A DNA stretch of 25,500 nucleotides from Candidatus Burarchaeum sp. (GTDB lineage Archaea; Micrarchaeota; Micrarchaeia; Burarchaeales; Burarchaeaceae). Shown here in pieces: positions 1,886 to 13,725 of this stretch; within the stretch, counting starts at the first letter, position 1; each line of letters begins with the position of its first letter. The position numbers and the translations under genes were made by a program. The DNA is taken from NCBI GenBank assembly GCA_030646255.1, contig JAUSNF010000014.1:1-25500 (forward strand), given 5' to 3'. The notes beneath the pieces are model-generated. The model saw only the letters and a program-made list of their open reading frames with translations, was not told the DNA's origin and searched no databases.

Positions 1886-2179
1886 TGGATCAGGCCAGCC
1901 GCCAATCCTAAGACAGCTAGGAAGCCGATCCAGGCGAGAAGATTTTTAATGTCTTCCGTGACCTCACCTCCCCGCATAATTCGCCCGTTCAGGTACCTTT
2001 TTAAAGAGAAGCTGAGTAAGCATATTGCCGATATGTTACTGCCTTCCGAACCGGGCTTGTTTGCGGATTTTTGTCCGAAAGGTTTGACTTCTCCTTATAA
2101 ACTAGACCTATCAAATTACTTCTTAATAAATTTTTTGTTTTGCAATGCAATTGGTTGAACTGCTGGACGGGGCGATTAA

Positions 2180-4927
2180 GTGGCCGAAATCACGAAAGAA
2201 GAAGCCAAACAAAAAGTAGCTGAACTACTTGAGGACTGGCGCCGCGAACATCCACAAGGCCCGCCTAGAACGTTTAATGAGGAGAATACTAAACAGTGGA
2301 TTGACGAACTATTTCACCGACTCGGCTGGAATCTTCGGACAGACTTGTCGAAAGAAGAAAGAAGTGGGAGGCGAAAGCGCGTCGATTACGCCTTCAAGAT
2401 AGAAGGTACTGTTCAGTTTCTGCTAGAGGCCAAGAAACCCAGCGAGAACCTTGATGATCATATCGATCAGGCAGTAGAATATGGCTACCAGAACAGCAAG
2501 AAATGGGTTGTTTTGACTAATTTTGAGGAAATACGGATATACAACTCAGAATACTGGAAGGAGGCAGAACAAACGAGGCGCCTTGTTACGCCGTTGAAGA
2601 TCACAGACTTCCTTACGCGCTTTGACGATCTGTGGCTTCTGAGCAAACCGGCCTTCGAAGAGCGACTAATTGAGAAAATAGCTGCACAGTATGGAAAGGC
2701 AAAGCCAAAGGAGCCGATAACTAAGATATTGTCTGATGATATGGAGAGGTGGAGGAAACTGCTTACGAAAGGCATAAGCGAGCACAGAAATCTTAACAAA
2801 ATACCTTCTGAGCCAGAGCAGGCAGAGGAATACATAGATGAAATGGTGCAGCGCATTCTTGATAGGATTTTGTTCATTCGTGTTGCAGAGGATCGGGGGA
2901 TTGAAGAACCAGTACTGGAGAACGCGCTAAGGAATTGGCAAGTAGACAAAAGCAAACCGCTGTCTGAATATCTGCGCCATGTTTTTAGAAAGATGGACGA
3001 CATTTATAACAGCGGCATTTTCCGAGAGCATGAGTCTGAGAAGCTAACCATAGATAATGAGAGTTACAGGCAAATCATAGATGAAAGTTACAAGAGCCCC
3101 ACTGGCCTGAAATACAATTTTGACGCGATTGATGCAGACATACTTGGATGTGTTTATGAGCAATATCTGAGCATTCTACTCAAAAAGACAGCTAAACGCA
3201 CGTCCTTGAAGGCGAGCAAAGGAAAAAGAAAGGAACAGGGAATCTACTACACGCCCACGTACATTGTAGATTACATAGTCAAAAACGCCCTTGGCGAAAT
3301 GCTGAAAGACAAGAAGCCGGAGGAAGTAGCGAGGCTGAAGGTGCTGGATCCTACTTGTGGCTCTGGTTCGTTTTTGATAAAAGCGTTTGACGAGATTAAG
3401 AGCTACTACAAGAACCAAAAGGGTCAGCAGAAGTTGAATGTGGACTCTCAAATACTTACACAGAATATTTACGGTGTAGATTTGGACTCAAAGGCGGTTG
3501 AAATAGCACGGCTCAATCTGCTTCTGAAGGCAGCTGAAACCAAACATAAATTGCCTGAATTAAACAATAATCTCAAGCAAGGAAATAGTTTTATTGAAAG
3601 TGAAGCTATCGCCGGAGACAAAGCGTTCAAATGGGAAAAACAATTTGCCAGTGTGTTTACAGATGGCCGCTTTGATGTAATTATTGGCAATCCACCCTAT
3701 GTTCACCAAAAAGGCGAGAAAGACGCTCCGAAAATTTCTTATTTGGAACGAGAATACTACCGCCAAAACTACACTTCAGTATATTCAAACGAAGTTAAAA
3801 CTAGAGGTGGGATAAAACTAAACTTGTTTGTGCCATATGTGGAACGAACAATAAGTCTTCTGAAGCCTATGGGTTTTCTCGGTTTCATAGTTCACAAAAA
3901 CGTTCTGAAAGTTGAATCATATAAACTACTTAGAAAATATATACTCGACAACTGCAGCATAGAACAAATAGTGGATTTGGGGGCTGGCGTTTTTTCAGAG
4001 GTAACTGGAGAAACCGTAATAATGATTCTAAAAAAGGAACCGAATTCTTCAAAGAGAAATGGCCACGAAATAAAGATAAGATATGGCCTTACGAATCCTG
4101 CCGATCTTCTTAACAATAAAGGCAAGACGACGCACCTAAAGCAAGAAAATTTTCAGCATTCTGTTGACCATATGTTTGCAATATATGTTGATGAGCGGGT
4201 AGAGTCGTTGAAAAATAAGCTATCAGTTAAATCGAAAAAATTAGACGAAGTAGCTAGAATAGTGTCATTTGGGCTTAACACCAAAGACAATAAAAAATAT
4301 CTTTCATTTGAAAAGTTAAACGGCGCTTACAAGCCCGTTGTGCTTGGCAGAGATGTTGGAAAATACGTCCTTAGAACACGAAACCGATTCGTGCTTTACG
4401 AAAGCAAAGTATTGGATAGAGTTGGAGATTTGGAGGCATTTAATAGCCCAGAAAAACTAATTTTTCAGAGAATAGGTTCTGGACTTATTGGAGTTTATGA
4501 TGACGAAAGATTCTATTGTTTTAACTCCACAAATATGATTCTCCCAAAACAAACTATTTTACAAAATCAAATTAAGCTAAAATATTTGCTAGGAATTTTG
4601 AATTCCAAATTAATGAACTATTACTATCGGGCTGTTTTCTCTACAGAATCAAGCCTTACAGTTAATGTAACGCAAGGATACCTTAGTCAACTACCAATAA
4701 AAATGGTCTCTGAACAAGAACAAGAACCAGTCATAAAGCTGGTTGACAAAATACTCGCCCTTAATCGCCGGCTCTTTGAGATCGGTAGCAAGAAAACAGA
4801 CGAGCGGGCGGAGGTCGAGGCAGAGATACAAAAAAGCGACGCAGAGATAGATGATCTTGTCTACAAACTTTATGGCCTTACGGAAGAAGAAAGGAAAATG
4901 GTTGAAAAGAACACTACTTCGGATTAA
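2180..4927 (+). CDS. Type IIL/IIG restriction-modification fusion enzyme (MmeI/Eco57I-like). It has an N-terminal PD-(D/E)xK nuclease, a gamma-class N6-adenine methyltransferase and a TaqI_C-like target-recognition domain.
   Basis: The 915-aa protein is close to MmeI in length (919 aa). Its N-terminus has D...EAK ('VDYAFK...LLEAKKP'). It has the 'YYTPTYIV' (HYT-like) motif, SAM motif I 'VLDPTCGSGSFL', and catalytic motif IV 'IIGNPPYV'. The C-terminal 'LLGILNSKLMNYYYRAVF' is TaqI_C-like. The gene is visibly AT-richer than the flanking genes. Confidence 0.8.
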   Translation: MAEITKEEAKQKVAELLEDWRREHPQGPPRTFNEENTKQWIDELFHRLGWNLRTDLSKEERSGRRKRVDYAFKIEGTVQFLLEAKKPSENLDDHIDQAVEYGYQNSKKWVVLTNFEEIRIYNSEYWKEAEQTRRLVTPLKITDFLTRFDDLWLLSKPAFEERLIEKIAAQYGKAKPKEPITKILSDDMERWRKLLTKGISEHRNLNKIPSEPEQAEEYIDEMVQRILDRILFIRVAEDRGIEEPVLENALRNWQVDKSKPLSEYLRHVFRKMDDIYNSGIFREHESEKLTIDNESYRQIIDESYKSPTGLKYNFDAIDADILGCVYEQYLSILLKKTAKRTSLKASKGKRKEQGIYYTPTYIVDYIVKNALGEMLKDKKPEEVARLKVLDPTCGSGSFLIKAFDEIKSYYKNQKGQQKLNVDSQILTQNIYGVDLDSKAVEIARLNLLLKAAETKHKLPELNNNLKQGNSFIESEAIAGDKAFKWEKQFASVFTDGRFDVIIGNPPYVHQKGEKDAPKISYLEREYYRQNYTSVYSNEVKTRGGIKLNLFVPYVERTISLLKPMGFLGFIVHKNVLKVESYKLLRKYILDNCSIEQIVDLGAGVFSEVTGETVIMILKKEPNSSKRNGHEIKIRYGLTNPADLLNNKGKTTHLKQENFQHSVDHMFAIYVDERVESLKNKLSVKSKKLDEVARIVSFGLNTKDNKKYLSFEKLNGAYKPVVLGRDVGKYVLRTRNRFVLYESKVLDRVGDLEAFNSPEKLIFQRIGSGLIGVYDDERFYCFNSTNMILPKQTILQNQIKLKYLLGILNSKLMNYYYRAVFSTESSLTVNVTQGYLSQLPIKMVSEQEQEPVIKLVDKILALNRRLFEIGSKKTDERAEVEAEIQKSDAEIDDLVYKLYGLTEEERKMVEKNTTSD

Positions 4928-5765
4928 GAAAGTGCTTTTCGATGTGAATTATTTGTGTTTTCGGAATGACAAGCTCCGTAGGATGAGCCGTCAAGTTGTC
5001 AGGTAATCCTTTCGTAGCATCTACATAAAAAGAGCGTAGAATAATCTCTGTTTTCGTTTCAGTTCTAAGATATCCGATGTACTTTCTGCGAGTAGTTATA
5101 ACCTCATATATGCAGAAGTCGGGAGATAGGAGGAGGGTAATCGCACCGTAATCATAACTAAGTGATACAATTAGTAAGAGTATCGGTGCGCTGAAGAAAA
5201 ATAAAGCCAGAAGTTGTGAGCAGCCATAAAGTGCGCAGTTGTCAGAGAACTTAAGCATAAAAATAAAACAGAAACCTACAAATCCAGAATAGGCAAGAAC
5301 ATTTATGATGAAATAGACTAGTTGATAGAAAAGAACGTTTGGACGCGTATGATTATTCAAGAAGCCAATAATGTCTAAATCAGAAACTTGTTTAAATGCA
5401 GGCAAATCACTGAACTTAGCTTTTAGCTGGCTTTTCATTGATCTCTTGAACTGTTTATCATAAAGAAATCGAAATAGCTGAGCTTGGTTTGTAAATTCCA
5501 AATTACTTTTTTCTTCATACTTAAAGCATACATAATTCTTTGCAGTAAATAGAAGGAGAGTAATGAGACCCAATACACTGACTACCCAAAGAGAATTATA
5601 ATGAGTCTCCAACAAACTAAAAGATAAAAGAAAAATTAAGAACGAGAAAAACAAGGGAACTATCAGAAATGTGAGAACATTCTGACCATATTTCTTTAAA
5701 GCATTGAAACCTTTAGGCGAATATGAAGAAAGACTGTTTAAAAATGCAGATGAAACATCTGGCAT
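4914..5765 (-). CDS. Polytopic membrane protein of unknown function with about 5 to 6 predicted TM helices. It is AT-rich and convergent with the RM gene, overlapping it by 14 bp.
   Basis: Long hydrophobic stretches include 'VLTFLIVPLFFSFLIFLLSFSLL', 'LWVVSVLGLITLLLF', 'VLFYQLVYFIINVLAYSGFVGFCFIFML' and 'LLALFFFSAPILLLIVSL'. Its codon and GC usage matches the neighbouring RM gene, not the GC-rich flanks. Confidence 0.5.
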   Translation of the reverse strand: MPDVSSAFLNSLSSYSPKGFNALKKYGQNVLTFLIVPLFFSFLIFLLSFSLLETHYNSLWVVSVLGLITLLLFTAKNYVCFKYEEKSNLEFTNQAQLFRFLYDKQFKRSMKSQLKAKFSDLPAFKQVSDLDIIGFLNNHTRPNVLFYQLVYFIINVLAYSGFVGFCFIFMLKFSDNCALYGCSQLLALFFFSAPILLLIVSLSYDYGAITLLLSPDFCIYEVITTRRKYIGYLRTETKTEIILRSFYVDATKGLPDNLTAHPTELVIPKTQIIHIEKHFLNPK

Positions 5766-5796
5766 AATTACTTACAACCTCACTCACGTAGTCCCT

Positions 5797-6753
5797 TTAC
5801 ACTCTCCTTTCATTCATCCTTCCCATCCCGGGCCTTCTCGAGAAGCCGGAGTTTCCGCCGGGTCTCGGCGAACCGGTCGGGCCGGACGGGCCGGATGAAC
5901 CGGCGGGGCGGGAGGAAATGGGCGGACGGACTGGAGCGGGCTTGACGGGCGCATCCTGAACGGCCTTGAAGCGAGCTTCGAACTGTTCCTTCAGCTTCGC
6001 GCCTATGGGATTGTGCGTGAAGGCATCGGCCCTGGCGCAGATGACCAGCTTGGTGGACAGCGCACGCGCAATCTTCCCCCGCATGTGCTTGGGCGACATC
6101 GAGATGGAGGCGTGCTGGAATATCAAGCCGTGCTTGGGCGGGTTGGTGCCCTTCTTCAGGTGCTTGAAGAGCGCCTTCTCAGCCCCGAGCACTTGCAGTG
6201 TGGAGGCGGGCATCATGGCCAGCTTGCGCAGAGAGCCTGCGTGCGCTATGAGCTTGGCGGCCAGCTCAGGCCCTGCTAGTAATGAGAGGTTGGGAGCTAT
6301 TTCATTGGCCAGGGAAGCCTGGTATTCCTCGAGCGAGGTGCGGTAGGCATAGAGGTCCTCGAGCTTGTGCGCAAGTTTGGTCATCTCGGCCAGGTCGGCA
6401 GTGCTGAGCTTTGCGCCTATGCTCGTCTTTGCCTTTGACTCCAGCTCCCGCGCCTTCTGCTCCCCTATTATTGGGGCGAGGTCGGATGCCTGTAAATCTT
6501 CACGGTTGATGAGCTGCACCAGCTTGGCAAAGGTGGGGGGCTCGGCTACGCGGAGCTCCGGGAAGTAGACTGCGTACCATTCGGTAAGGGTTTCATAGAG
6601 TAAGTTGGATGCCCTGTTCACCTCGAAGATTGCCTTCACGGTGTGCGAGAGGAGCAGGTCGCGCGCAGCGTGCGCTTCCCTCAGCATTGCCTTGGTCTCT
6701 TCCAGGAAGTCGCGCTTCTTGGCGCGGGGCCTATTCTCCATGCGGTTGTCCAT
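5797..6753 (-). CDS. nop5: Nop5/Nop56/Prp31-family protein (NOSIC plus Nop domain). It is a short form lacking the N-terminal fibrillarin-binding domain, with a Pro/Gly/Ser-rich C-terminal tail.
   Basis: 'LTEWYAVYFPEL' is the NOSIC hallmark and is followed by a Nop-domain core ('LLAGPELAAKLIAHAGSLRKLAMMPASTLQVLGAEKALFKHL'). The protein starts directly at the NOSIC region at about residue 55. A 'TTTAAAA' TATA lies about 27 nt upstream on the minus strand. Confidence 0.75.
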   Translation of the reverse strand: MDNRMENRPRAKKRDFLEETKAMLREAHAARDLLLSHTVKAIFEVNRASNLLYETLTEWYAVYFPELRVAEPPTFAKLVQLINREDLQASDLAPIIGEQKARELESKAKTSIGAKLSTADLAEMTKLAHKLEDLYAYRTSLEEYQASLANEIAPNLSLLAGPELAAKLIAHAGSLRKLAMMPASTLQVLGAEKALFKHLKKGTNPPKHGLIFQHASISMSPKHMRGKIARALSTKLVICARADAFTHNPIGAKLKEQFEARFKAVQDAPVKPAPVRPPISSRPAGSSGPSGPTGSPRPGGNSGFSRRPGMGRMNERRV

Positions 6754-6801
6754 GGACTAGTTTAGGGGGAAGAGGATTTTAAAGGTTTAGAGGGGGCTGG
6801 C

Positions 6802-7209
6802 TTACCTGCGATGATATTTGAACTTCTTGTCATAATCAGGATGCGAGGAGATTTCCAGAATGTTGGCACGTATTTCCCCATCGTCGTTGCCTTTTTCAGT
6901 TGAATATGACATGCGCCATCTGTTGGCTAGTTCAACGTGGAAGAGGTTGGTTGCACCGTATTTGAGTATGTAAGAGACAGGTATTTTGCCCTTGCCAACT
7001 GATTTTCCGTACTGGAAGTCGGCTGCAATGCGGTCGCATTTGTAGTCTACAGATTTCAGGATTGCCCGGTCGAACTTGGAGGTTGCAGCCGTCTCTTTCA
7101 GGTGTCGGTAGGTCTCGGCTGCTTCGGGAGAAAAACGGACTCTTACAAATCTTTCAGGTCCACTCCGTGGAGTTTCATGTATTTTGCCATCTTGGGGTTG
7201 TACATCCAA
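6802..7209 (-). CDS. RelE/YoeB/ParE-superfamily toxin-like ORF. Homology starts near 7146 and no in-frame ATG or GTG is available. Translation may start at the TTG at 7209, overlapping the upstream gene, or the gene may be a pseudogene.
   Basis: The C-terminal 110 aa are 'VRVRFSPEAAETYRHLKE...GKGKIPVSYILKYGATNLFHVELANRWRMSY...'. This matches RelE/YoeB topology, with an 'i.FS..A..dlk.L'-type N-terminus and a GKGK...RiiY-like core. The six-frame ORF 6802..7506 is an artefactual extension with a low-complexity N-terminal half read through another gene. Confidence 0.4.
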   Translation of the reverse strand: MDVQPQDGKIHETPRSGPERFVRVRFSPEAAETYRHLKETAATSKFDRAILKSVDYKCDRIAADFQYGKSVGKGKIPVSYILKYGATNLFHVELANRWRMSYSTEKGNDDGEIRANILEISSHPDYDKKFKYHRR

Positions 7210-7436
7210 GTTATTCCGCGTGAGCCAAAGGCTATCTTGTTGCTTCTGTCCAGGTAGTCGAGTATGACCATCAGCGTGTTGTGGTTCACCTGCTTTGGCA
7301 GGCACCTCTTGAGTTGGGCTACCGTGATGACGCTTTCGTCCATTTTGGTCAGCACCTTCTCCACCATCAGAATCGTGTTCAGCGTGGGCGAGTGCGCCAC
7401 CTCGTATGTCGGAGTTGCAGATGCCAAAGTAATCAC
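7143..7436 (-). CDS. Small hypothetical protein immediately upstream of the RelE-like ORF. It may be its antitoxin or a wHTH regulator.
   Basis: The 97-aa ORF ends with TAA at 7143-7145, one codon from where toxin homology begins in the +1 frame. The listed start is GTG, inside a GGTGA motif. TTG at 7427 or the ATG for 'MVEKVL' at 7367 are alternatives. An AT-rich promoter region with 'TTTATAAAC' lies upstream on the minus strand. Confidence 0.35.
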   Translation of the reverse strand: MITLASATPTYEVAHSPTLNTILMVEKVLTKMDESVITVAQLKRCLPKQVNHNTLMVILDYLDRSNKIAFGSRGITWMYNPKMAKYMKLHGVDLKDL

Positions 7437-7929: not shown

Positions 7930-7949
7930 AGGGTGGGGAGCGGGTGACT
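7930..7949. repeat. Left copy of a perfect 20-bp inverted repeat (AGGGTGGGGAGCGGGTGACT) flanking the wHTH-MNT gene.
   Basis: The reverse complement, AGTCACCCGCTCCCCACCCT, occurs at 8537-8556. It was checked base by base. Twenty perfect base pairs would not occur by chance in 25 kb. Confidence 0.85.
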
Positions 7950-8487
7950 ATTTGAGCTGCCTGGTTTTCTTGCCTTTCAGGAATGAAAGGAGCTCGGTGC
8001 GGGAGGTGAAGAGAAGGGGCACGAGCTTGAGGCGCGTGCGCTCGTGGAAGGAGAGAATGAGGGGCTCGGGAGAGTAGGTTTTGGGTGCAAGGAAGGCGAG
8101 GTCGATGTCGCTCTCGGGCTTCTCCTCCCCGCGCGCAGTGCTGCCGAAGAGGTGGGCCTCCTTTATTTCTTTCTCGTTTGCAAGGAGGCGCTTGAGCGTT
8201 GGGAGGCTTACTTGGTGGGAGGAAGGAAAGGAGATGAGTTTGTTAAGACGTGAGAAGAGGGGGCTTTTGCGCAGCTCAATGACGCGCGCCCTGCCTATAG
8301 TGCTTACATCTATCAGGCCGGCACGCCGCCAGAGCTCGACTGCACGCCAGGTTGATGCAAAAGGCACTTTCGCAGTGAGCGAGAGCTCGCGTATAGTGAA
8401 TTTGCGGTTCGGGAAGCGGCGCAGGGTCAGGAGGAGCTCCTGGCTGCCCTTGAAGCGCACAAGGTCTACGAGGTTCATATGATCCAC
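7948..8487 (-). CDS. Winged-HTH plus minimal nucleotidyltransferase (MNT) protein, the putative antitoxin/regulator of the HEPN protein.
   Basis: 'HLFGSTARGEEKPESDIDLAFL' is the GS-x(9-13)-DxD NTase motif. The N-terminal 'FTIRELSLTAKVPFASTWRAVELWRRAGLI' is wHTH-like. The start is GTG at 8487 or ATG at 8478. The TAG stop at 7948-7950 lies inside the left 20-bp inverted repeat. Confidence 0.75.
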   Translation of the reverse strand: MDHMNLVDLVRFKGSQELLLTLRRFPNRKFTIRELSLTAKVPFASTWRAVELWRRAGLIDVSTIGRARVIELRKSPLFSRLNKLISFPSSHQVSLPTLKRLLANEKEIKEAHLFGSTARGEEKPESDIDLAFLAPKTYSPEPLILSFHERTRLKLVPLLFTSRTELLSFLKGKKTRQLK

Positions 8488-11643: not shown

Positions 11644-13725
11644 TCAACCAGAGGGCGTTGTTGCGCCTGCACTTCCACTTGACCCGCTCCCGGAGCTGCC
11701 TCCTGAGCTAGAGGACTCGGCTGCGGGCATTGGTGGAAGTGTCCCATCTGTCATCATGTCGCCGCCGTAATAGCGGTAGTCATAGCCGCCCTTCAGGTCC
11801 TCGCGCGATATTTCAGAGTAGTCGGCGAATGAGAAGGCCGCGACATCGGTGCTCGTCACCACGTAGAGGTACTCGTCCGCATACACGTTGCGCTGCGCAT
11901 TCTCGTCCAGTATTTTCTTCAGCGCAATGCTGTTGCCGGTCACGCTGAACACATAGTCCTTGCCCCCGATGGGCGCGATTACGAGCTGCTTGCCCGGGTG
12001 GTAGACGAATGCGTGCGGATTGTAGAGCGCATCGCTCCAGTACTCATCGAGCTTGTACGTGTCGAGCTCCTTTGGCTCTGCGGGGTTCGAGATGTCAAAG
12101 AGCGAGAGCTTTATCTTGCCGCTGTCCTGCCCGATGCCCACCAGCTTGCCATCACCCACAGGGTGCAGGTAAGTGGAGAAGCCGGGCACTTTCAGCTCGC
12201 CGGCTATTTTCGGATTGGCCGGGTCTGAGAGGTCCATCACGAAGAGCGGGTCGGTCTGCCTGAAGGTTACGACATAGCCTGTGGCGCCCATGAAGCGCAC
12301 TGCATAGATGCGCTCGCCTTCAGCCATTCCAACTATCATGCCCTTCTTCGTCATGTCGGTGCCTAGCACTACAACGCCGTTCTCGGCGCTGTCCCACCTT
12401 CCATAGGTAACTGCCGCGCGCAGGTCGCCGTTGTACTCATCCAGCGCATACTGGCTGAGCAGGTGGCCTGGCACCTTGCCTGTTGCCTGCATGCTGACCT
12501 GTCCCTGCCCGCTGTAGCTCATCTTGACTATGCCAGTGTACTCGAGCCTCTCGGGGTCTTCGCGTATGTAGGCTGTCAGGCCGTCTGAGAGCTCGTTGGC
12601 AAAGTTGGCTAATTGCTCAGGTGTGAGGGTTGCGAACCATTTCGAAAGCGCGAGAGAGGACTCGACTGCCTTCGCTTCGTCGGAAATGTCGAGGCCGTTC
12701 ACATAAGTGAGGCGCTTGTATATTTCGTTCGGTATGAGGGACTTGCCGCCGGCGAGCAGATAGTTCATGGTTACGGTTGTCTCGGATTTCTGCTCGGGCA
12801 TGCCGACATAGATGTTGTCCTCCGACATGTAGAGCGTTGCGCTGTAGGGGCCGGTGAATGCTTCAGCATCTATAACCTCGCCGGTCTGCGCATTGAGCGA
12901 GATTACCTCGTAGAATACCTGCGAGCTTACGCCCTGCGGTATGTAGATGCTCGTGTATGGAATTTCGACTGGCATGCACTTGGTGCCGCTGCCGCACACT
13001 TCCATCGGCATGGGCTTATAGTATGGCGTCTGCGGGTACTGCTGCATCACGAGGTAGATTATGCCGTCCTTCATGCGCGAGTCAAGGTAGGTGGAGTTGA
13101 GGTTCACGTGCCAGACCTCGTCGCCGTTGGCCTTGCTGAATGCGTCTATCCTGTCATAGGAGATTGCAATTACTGCATCCTTGTATTCATAGAGCCCGTT
13201 CCCGTAGTTGCGCAGCTCGTCAGTCTGGTATCTTTTCATGTCCTCGGGCGGGAAGATATTGAGGAAATTGACAGTCTTGCCGTTGAGCACATAGAGCTTC
13301 TTGCCTGTCGCGCTGTCGAGCTTCACGTTGTCGAGTTCGTCCACGCCCACAACCTGTACATTAGTCTGTGAGTAGTCTGTTGGGCCTGTGGATTGCTTCG
13401 CGCCGTCCGTTATGCCGGCGGCAGTTTGTGCGGGTGCGCCGCTTTCAGTCACTATTCCAAAGTCCATTCCGGTTGTCGTGCGTATTCCACCATTGAACCC
13501 TCCGCCGTAGTAATTGCCTGAGAGCGCGGACTTGAGGAATGCATTCTCAACGTCCTCCTTGCCCTGCGCCTGCTTGAGTGTAAATGAGCCTGTGCCTACT
13601 ATGCTTGGGCCGGTGCCTGGTCCGGTTCCTGGGCCTGTACCCGGGGGAGTAGGAGAAAGACCTGGGCAGCCCGCTATGAGCAGCAAGCTGAATATTAGAG
13701 CAATCATGATCTTCGTGTTGTCCAT
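11644..13725 (-). CDS. Secreted or lipid-anchored beta-propeller-domain protein (COG4880-like) with a signal peptide, a lipobox-like LIAGC and a (PGTG)x3 linker.
   Basis: The true start is the ATG at 13725 ('MDNTKIMIALIFSLLLIAGCPG') with a GGTGG 6 nt upstream. The 1025-aa six-frame ORF continues upstream through the divergent promoter and into the glyS antisense, so it is artefactual. The protein is Tyr/Gly/Thr/Asp-rich and beta-rich, with a Ser/Gly-rich C-terminal tail. Confidence 0.65.
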   Translation of the reverse strand: MDNTKIMIALIFSLLLIAGCPGLSPTPPGTGPGTGPGTGPSIVGTGSFTLKQAQGKEDVENAFLKSALSGNYYGGGFNGGIRTTTGMDFGIVTESGAPAQTAAGITDGAKQSTGPTDYSQTNVQVVGVDELDNVKLDSATGKKLYVLNGKTVNFLNIFPPEDMKRYQTDELRNYGNGLYEYKDAVIAISYDRIDAFSKANGDEVWHVNLNSTYLDSRMKDGIIYLVMQQYPQTPYYKPMPMEVCGSGTKCMPVEIPYTSIYIPQGVSSQVFYEVISLNAQTGEVIDAEAFTGPYSATLYMSEDNIYVGMPEQKSETTVTMNYLLAGGKSLIPNEIYKRLTYVNGLDISDEAKAVESSLALSKWFATLTPEQLANFANELSDGLTAYIREDPERLEYTGIVKMSYSGQGQVSMQATGKVPGHLLSQYALDEYNGDLRAAVTYGRWDSAENGVVVLGTDMTKKGMIVGMAEGERIYAVRFMGATGYVVTFRQTDPLFVMDLSDPANPKIAGELKVPGFSTYLHPVGDGKLVGIGQDSGKIKLSLFDISNPAEPKELDTYKLDEYWSDALYNPHAFVYHPGKQLVIAPIGGKDYVFSVTGNSIALKKILDENAQRNVYADEYLYVVTSTDVAAFSFADYSEISREDLKGGYDYRYYGGDMMTDGTLPPMPAAESSSSGGSSGSGSSGSAGATTPSG

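Follow-up and report, generated by a model that had tools for sequence, protein, structure and literature searches.

The gene described here lies on the minus strand of contig JAUSNF010000014.1 from the archaeon Candidatus Burarchaeum sp. (Burarchaeales, Micrarchaeota) and encodes a Nop5 protein that lacks the N-terminal domain (NTD) with which canonical archaeal Nop5 binds fibrillarin. Positions 1 to 25,500 of that contig were analysed and are referred to as the window. The reading frame, 318 residues from an ATG, is present as an earlier note on this DNA had described it, and the lack of an NTD, also claimed there, is agreed on by Pfam, by alignment with proteins in the PDB, by NCBIfam and by a six-frame scan with a model of the NTD. 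The features of the gene are as follows.

5797..6753, minus strand: coding sequence of the Nop5 without NTD, 318 residues plus stop, ATG start (open reading frame listing, Pfam Nop, NCBIfam aNOP56)
6298..6729, minus strand: coiled-coil domain with tip insertion, residues ~9-152, through which canonical Nop5 dimerises (structure model, Foldseek, alignment)
5953..6297, minus strand: C-terminal Nop core, residues ~153-267, with the motifs GAEKALFKHL, PPKHG-IFQH and RGKIAR
5800..5952, minus strand: disordered, net-basic tail rich in P, G, S and R, residues 268-318 (model confidence, composition)
6757..6759, minus strand: in-frame TAG stop, two codons 5' of the ATG (read from the sequence)
6777..6783, minus strand: TATA-like box TTTAAAA within AAACCTTTAAAAT, centre ~27 nt 5' of the ATG (putative promoter element)

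Domains, fold and integrity of the short Nop5

A Pfam search of the protein gave a single match at E ≤ 0.01, to PF01798 (Nop) at residues 44-263 (E 7.8e-62), which scored 209.1 bits against a gathering cutoff of 25.4 and covered positions 4-227 of the 228 in the profile; no NOP5NT domain was reported. When all PDB sequences were searched with phmmer, archaeal Nop5 chains were found with E-values of 1e-57 to 4.7e-61, residues 17-266 of the query aligning with residues 122-375 of S. solfataricus Nop5 and 126-376 of P. furiosus Nop5 at 40-45% identity over 250 residues, which leaves about 120 N-terminal residues of the canonical protein without a counterpart. The NCBIfam equivalog model for aNOP56 (NF011121) was matched at positions 124-385 of 417, with positions 1-123 unmatched, and the score of 297.6 bits lies under the 452-bit cutoff because the NTD is missing. 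Since the alignment begins at S. solfataricus residue 122 and the NF011121 match covers only those later model positions, the protein begins at the point that marks the start of the coiled coil in canonical Nop5. The motif WYAVYFPEL, placed at about residue 55 by the earlier note, is indeed present, at residues 59-67.

An AlphaFold2 model, calculated from a 24-sequence family alignment, has a mean pLDDT (predicted local distance difference test score) of 86, and is all-helical over residues 9-267 and disordered over 268-318. Its coiled-coil region is made up of helices at residues 9-28, 31-63, 72-110 and 118-152, with pLDDT mostly above 90, and by analogy with canonical Nop5 the protein would dimerise through this region. 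In the Nop core, where pLDDT is 88-98, the three motifs listed above are invariant or nearly so in an alignment of 24 family members, and they were confirmed residue by residue against the S. solfataricus and P. furiosus proteins; in the solved complexes these motifs contact L7Ae and the kink-turn (K-turn). The best Foldseek matches were 3pla_A (S. solfataricus Nop5 in the active C/D ribonucleoprotein, RNP), 3nvi_A (target-normalised template-modelling score, TM, 0.94; root mean square deviation, rmsd, 1.3 Å) and 3icx_A (S. solfataricus Nop5 135-380; TM 0.93), with rmsd values over the latter two of 1.3-1.4 Å. Both 3NVI (P. furiosus Nop56/58 delta-NTD) and 3ICX are laboratory truncations with the same domain content as the window protein, and 3NVI, described as 'N-terminal truncated Nop56/58 bound with L7Ae and box C/D RNA', shows that a Nop5 shortened in this way can still form a complex with both partners. 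Judged by the model, the window protein is a natural equivalent of these constructs, differing from them in that it is conserved in the phylum and carries an added disordered tail.

The tail past residue 266 (52 residues; P 21%, G 17%, S 15%, R 15%, K 2%) has a pLDDT of 47-52 and is predicted to be disordered. Its length and sequence differ among relatives, and a terminal G-R-x-N/E-E-R-R-G/V is all that close relatives have in common. The P/G/S-rich character reported in the earlier note is correct, but the canonical archaeal tails in our comparison set are K/R/P-rich and basic, without the strict KKE repeats that had been supposed.

Because the TAG stands in frame two codons upstream, the reading frame cannot be extended in the 5' direction, and a different reading frame, ending at 6802, occupies the DNA upstream, as had been noted. 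The orthologue of Ca. Burarchaeum australiense has an element equivalent to the TATA-like box, AAACCTTTATAT, ~30 nt 5' of its ATG, and the spacing in the window implies a transcript that is probably leaderless or nearly so. A frameshift concealing an NTD was considered and ruled out on the strength of the in-frame stop, this conserved promoter-like box and a hidden Markov model (HMM) of the NTD, derived from 29 canonical Nop5 sequences, which found no match at E ≤ 10 in the six-frame translation of the window; the earlier note had also argued that no frameshift hides the domain. On Logan contig L001, an independent assembly, the identical reading frame is called, and relatives that are 95%, 80% and 70% identical share the architecture of the window protein, the Burarchaeum orthologue being 80% identical in the core and lying in a syntenic neighbourhood of PolD, aminoacyl-tRNA synthetase (aaRS) and nop5. 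The ratio of nonsynonymous to synonymous substitution rates (dN/dS) against Ca. Burarchaeum is 0.22 in the core and 0.46 in the tail; nop5 is under purifying selection. Before these checks, the sole grounds for suspecting a frameshift from sequencing, a wrongly called start or a gene that had recently become a pseudogene in this genome were the odd length of the gene and the absence of a neighbouring fibrillarin gene (flpA), which is indeed missing from the window, a tblastn search with a fibrillarin query having found nothing. Taken together, the stop, the conserved box, the dN/dS value and the invariant motifs exclude the artefact and pseudogene explanations, which we regard as already refuted and to which we attach almost no probability.

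Set beside archaeal Nop5 (COG1498/arCOG01923), the window protein has the same coiled coil with its tip insertion, the same Nop C-terminal domain and the same invariant L7Ae/K-turn motifs, and it is apparently the sole family member in its lineage. It differs in the absent fibrillarin-binding NTD of ~115-125 residues, in a gene without flpA next to it and in a P/G/S/R-rich rather than K/R-rich tail; the NTD and a score above the equivalog cutoff are two usual features of the family that it does not have. The domain content also recalls eukaryotic Prp31 of the U4/U6 small nuclear RNP, which likewise consists of a coiled coil and a Nop domain without an N-terminal domain (PMC11213020) and binds a K-turn to which an L7Ae-family protein is already bound (PDB 2OZB, 3SIU). 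However, Prp31 chains were found at E-values of only 7.7e-22 to 2.8e-14, compared with 4.7e-61 for archaeal Nop5, and Foldseek identities were ~25% compared with 40-44%, while no Prp31 C-terminal domain (PF09785) was found in the window protein by the Pfam search at E ≤ 0.01. The resemblance is one of architecture alone, the outcome of convergent domain loss rather than of family membership, and the suggestion of a Prp31-like paralogue in the earlier note is not upheld. Another naturally shortened protein is A. fulgidus Nop5 (PDB 1NT2; 258 residues in the crystal), with which only residues 126-263 of the query align, to chain residues 112-253. This protein is reduced in the opposite way: it retains the NTD and binds fibrillarin but has a shortened coiled-coil region, with which the restricted alignment is consistent.

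The short form across Micrarchaeota and the fibrillarin that accompanies it

In a search of 5.8 billion proteins, the NTD was absent from all 120 of the best homologues, whose N-terminal overhang relative to the query was at most 69 residues and mostly below 15; where names were given, they were Micrarchaeota, Anstonellales, Burarchaeum and Parvarchaeota. The extra length of longer family members consists of low-complexity tails. The picture was the same when HMMER was run exhaustively against 1.84 billion representatives from clustering at 50% identity, the best 16 matches all lacking the NTD, as did ~48 of the best 150. We also surveyed nop5 loci using one genome per GTDB species, which returned 80 loci. 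At 31 Micrarchaeota-labelled loci, Nop5 lacked the NTD, no fibrillarin gene was present within ±10 kb and the NTD HMM found no match in any frame over the same distance. In contrast, flpA lay directly downstream of nop5 at 47 of 47 loci from other archaea (among them Bathyarchaeia, Thermococcus, Sulfolobales and Nitrososphaerota), and the NTD was detected at 46 of these, the remaining locus being cut by a contig end. Three Micrarchaeota nop5 neighbourhoods read with gene tables also contained no flpA. The Nop5 of Micrarchaeota is made up of a coiled coil, the C-terminal Nop domain and a basic tail that is disordered and variable, with the NTD absent in all those sampled. Every Micrarchaeota genome sampled has the short form, which is thus the norm in this phylum and not a peculiarity of the window. 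Mia14, a complete Micrarchaeota genome, contains only one COG1498 member, and the short Nop5 therefore looks like the orthologue rather than an extra copy.

Some Micrarchaeota Nop5 proteins carry N-terminal extensions, but these are Arg/Gly-rich low-complexity sequence and not an NTD. Such repeats, of the RGG, GAR or 'DRPRF' kind and 50-190 residues long, occur at either end of many of the NTD-less proteins: at the N-terminus in P0004, P0102, P0254, P0287, P0297, P0328, P0338, P0368, L018, L023, L028, L031 and L039, and at the C-terminal end in P0017, P0057 and L066. In eukaryotes, the GAR domain is found on fibrillarin, whereas here a similar low-complexity module is carried by Nop5. Of the apparently short proteins scattered outside the main clade, one, P0365, was rejected as an NTD-less member because it is a fragment of a 400-residue protein. 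A further group of Nop5 proteins (P0350, P0366 and P0382) has a strongly shortened N-terminal region of ~45-67 Ala/Asp-rich residues ahead of the coiled coil, and a cluster member of this group, P0527, is named Candidatus Thermoplasmatota archaeon; reduction of the NTD may extend beyond Micrarchaeota.

Fibrillarin itself has been retained. With the fibrillarin of one Micrarchaeota-labelled locus (L068, described below) as seed, we found a homologue from a Bilamarchaeaceae genome (P0230) that passes the NCBIfam fibrillarin equivalog and that, used as a query in turn, returned 118 further fibrillarins of 214-228 residues, 64-78% identical to it and named Bilamarchaeaceae, Bilamarchaeum dharawalense, Anstonellales or Micrarchaeota. 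Micrarchaeota fibrillarins are 49-54% identical to M. jannaschii fibrillarin, and a nine-sequence alignment has 53 invariant columns. Fibrillarin in this lineage is of normal length and strongly conserved, and its gene is mostly unlinked from nop5. Both genes were found on one 91,115-bp contig (CAZPPT010000006.1), on which a fibrillarin gene (P0455) and the NTD-less nop5 of locus L032 are ~43 kb apart. Related archaea therefore carry the short form alongside a normal fibrillarin, an observation that the earlier note had named as one that would speak against its idea of a degenerating gene; that idea is refuted by this pairing and by the short form in all 120 homologues and at 31 Micrarchaeota loci, besides the dN/dS value given above. 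A fusion of fibrillarin with the NTD was also considered and rejected, as all 118 proteins have only methyltransferase Pfam domains within their 214-228 residues. In Mia14, there is one arCOG00078 and one arCOG01923 member, that is, one fibrillarin and one Nop-domain protein, and in the DPANN genomes AR17 and AR20 both genes are missing (PMC5498576 Supplementary Data 4).

At position 109 (M. jannaschii numbering; motif A-P-R after strand beta-2), arginine is present in 33 of 33 canonical fibrillarins, whereas 88% of the 118 Micrarchaeota-type sequences have glutamine; the other fixed lineage differences include A157D, E196V and L128H. Both sets of sequences are phylogenetically biased, and we give these differences little weight. 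The neighbours of flpA vary among Micrarchaeota loci L086, L087 and L090, and none resembles an NTD. At L086 (4580-5925, Bilamarchaeaceae), flpA overlaps by 4 nt the stop of the gene for the ribosome maturation factor SBDS, an arrangement which suggests that fibrillarin may be co-translated there with another ribosome-biogenesis factor; the overlap is not kept in L087 or L090, where the adjoining reading frames are unrelated. The third protein of the canonical particle, L7Ae, is encoded near nop5 in L005 (2623-3117, minus strand) and L015. These L7Ae proteins are 159-164 residues long, compared with the usual ~120-125, the extra length being a C-terminal K/E/P-rich tail of ~40 residues (for example, ...KKSEEKKEEQKP...KKPKKPKKPKKKED). 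A K/E-rich tail of the type typical of Nop56/58 is found here on L7Ae, where it could offer an alternative contact surface.

Nop5 and fibrillarin without the classical tether

The explanation that we prefer is that the window gene is a normal, functional Nop5 (aNOP56, COG1498) orthologue of a Burarchaeales archaeon, which most likely works with fibrillarin in one methylation particle; we put the probability of this at roughly 0.6. In such a particle, to go by the solved structures, two Nop5 chains would pair through the coiled coil, the homodimer spanning the C/D and C'/D' sites, and the composite surface made by L7Ae and the K-turn of box C/D-type RNAs would be clamped by the C-terminal Nop domain. 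The motifs for binding the L7Ae-K-turn complex are conserved, and guided 2'-O-methylation would be the work of this particle. In place of the classical NTD, something else would hold fibrillarin, for instance another surface, a disordered tail or an adaptor. That Nop5 and fibrillarin still cooperate through a non-classical tether of this kind is, on balance, what we would expect, because nop5 and fibrillarin are retained together and lost together, because fibrillarin, for all its strong conservation, is not known to find targets unaided, and because of two individual loci. The first of these is L068, a Micrarchaeota-labelled locus from a hydrothermal metagenome (5244-6866), which encodes an NTD-less Nop5 of 303 residues with a Lys-rich tail, followed after 24 nt by a normal gene for a 228-residue fibrillarin. 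In a crude neighbour-joining tree of Nop domains, L068 groups with the NTD-containing sequences, the tree being too star-like to decide on independent loss, and the locus represents either an early-branching state or an independent loss of the NTD. The second is L062, in which a candidate double-guide C/D small RNA (sRNA) with textbook spacing (GTGATGA-12 nt-CTGA-9 nt-TGAAGA-12 nt-CTGA) and an upstream TATA-like box lies at 11956-12009 on the minus strand, 1.1 kb from an NTD-less nop5. The candidate matches Rfam snoPyro_CD from end to end at 17 bits, under the gathering score, and its metagenome-assembled genome is labelled Marsarchaeota, with an aaRS-nop5 synteny that is Micrarchaeota-like; we treat it as a lead and not as proof. 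The earlier note had expected that a Nop5 without its NTD should not recruit fibrillarin. This expectation rests on established structural knowledge, but the retention of both genes and the pairing of short nop5 and flpA in L068 call it into question. The 'lineage-specific minimal C/D RNP' offered there as one possibility is the reading that the evidence favours, and the interpretation in the note as a whole is partly supported.

Several observations weigh against this explanation. To our knowledge, the NTD is the only fibrillarin-binding element in Nop5, Nop56 and Nop58 (1NT2, 2NNW, 3ID5, 3PLA), and a replacement contact is our proposal. The linkage of nop5 and flpA is broken in 31 of the 32 Micrarchaeota-labelled loci. 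The co-occurrence with fibrillarin and L7Ae comes from relatives rather than from the genome of the window itself, and the Mia14 Nop5 enters it with its short form unconfirmed. In addition, an underpowered scan of ~560 kb of Micrarchaeota DNA with strict and relaxed box patterns, accompanied by shuffles, gave no candidate for a double-guide C/D sRNA, and Rfam at its gathering threshold gave nothing in the window. The same scan found merely two candidates in 695 kb from canonical archaea, and it is therefore uninformative between the readings considered here, whether of a tether, of a scaffold or of a split NTD.

A rather doubtful, more general possibility is that Nop5 has been uncoupled from the classical hold on fibrillarin, either through recruitment by a new contact, for which the R/G-rich Nop5 tails, the K/E-rich L7Ae tail and a new adaptor protein are candidates, or as a methyltransferase-free organiser of K-turn RNPs. 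The latter idea can be put more specifically: Nop5 might be a fibrillarin-independent scaffold, a functional analogue of Prp31 that organises or chaperones L7Ae-bound K-turn RNAs without a methyltransferase, for example in rRNA folding or processing, with fibrillarin acting separately or with another partner. We consider this unlikely, although it is the main rival to the explanation above. It would suit the architecture shared with Prp31, the unlinked genes at nearly all Micrarchaeota loci and the empty, if underpowered, sRNA scan, and the substitution at position 109 of fibrillarin may be a weak lead in the same direction; but an archaeal fibrillarin, for which we know of no stand-alone targeting, is kept across the phylum at 64-78% conservation, DPANN genomes without one of the two genes are also without the other, nop5 and flpA are adjacent in L068, and a plausible C/D sRNA accompanies the short nop5 of L062. 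Were Nop5 such an organiser, archaea would have taken, independently, a step comparable to the one from which eukaryotic Prp31 arose.

It is also conceivable, if improbable, that the gene has been split, the NTD being made elsewhere as a separate small protein that binds fibrillarin and joins Nop5 non-covalently. Split genes are common in DPANN archaea, and the DNA examined amounts to ~20 kb per genome, so that most of each genome is unseen. The NTD HMM, which detects 46 of 47 canonical loci, nevertheless found no match at E ≤ 10 in ~560 kb of Micrarchaeota DNA, with the reservation that the NTD is poorly conserved and a very divergent copy could escape it. The annotated reading frames flanking flpA in L086, L087 and L090 were negative with both the HMM and hhalign. 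As candidates for a split NTD beside flpA or nop5 they were rejected, since they do not resemble the NTD or, by BLAST, each other; one of them, L090_155, showed no similarity to the loci in a tblastn search, and no neighbour of flpA is conserved.

In every structural model of a box C/D RNP known to us, archaeal or eukaryotic, fibrillarin reaches the RNA through the NTD of Nop5, Nop56 or Nop58. The Micrarchaeota have lost this domain, yet strong selection has maintained in them an ordinary fibrillarin and the remainder of Nop5, and they offer both a natural test of whether the fibrillarin tether is dispensable, replaceable or bypassed and a living example of a change from Nop5 to a Prp31-type architecture. 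There is also a practical side, in that Nop and fibrillarin are single-copy marker genes for the completeness of archaeal genomes, and the NCBI equivalog model misses the short Nop5, which is then annotated as 'hypothetical' or 'NOP58 family'. Full-text searches of PMC open-access papers and bioRxiv turned up neither an NTD-less archaeal Nop5 nor any peculiarity of the Micrarchaeota C/D RNP, which does not prove that none has been published; the supplement of Dombrowski 2020 gives marker statistics only.

Genes around nop5

The genes on either side of nop5 in the window are the following.

2180-4927, plus strand: type IIG restriction-modification fusion, 915 residues (Eco57I / N6_Mtase / TaqI_C / MmeI domains)
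4914-5765, minus strand: multi-pass membrane protein, 283 residues
region 6802-7436, minus strand: second small reading frame, ending at 6802, with no canonical start right after the stop of the first small reading frame; not called on the Logan contig
7143-7436, minus strand: first small reading frame upstream of nop5, 97 residues
7494-7892, minus strand: HEPN-domain protein, 132 residues (weak Pfam match, 19 bits, below cutoff)
7948-8487, minus strand: minimal nucleotidyltransferase (MNT), 179 residues (Polbeta / NTP_transf_2)

Directly downstream of nop5, the window has a stretch of low GC content at 2000-5800 (0.37-0.45, compared with ~0.52-0.58 elsewhere). At this position, three other Micrarchaeota nop5 neighbourhoods encode a metallophosphoesterase, a GNAT acetyltransferase or both, and the stretch therefore looks like a horizontally acquired insertion.

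The reading frame ending at 6802 had been called toxin-like in the earlier note, a description that finds no support in Pfam or NCBIfam, neither of which gave a match to either of the small upstream reading frames. Both are conserved in Ca. Burarchaeum (L002 9356-9951; genes of 85 and 89 residues), with the shared C-terminus ...HPDYDKKFKY. Further upstream, the adjacent HEPN and nucleotidyltransferase genes have the usual arrangement of a HEPN-MNT toxin-antitoxin pair, and on the Logan contig genes for a ParE toxin and a DUF7557 protein lie further along.

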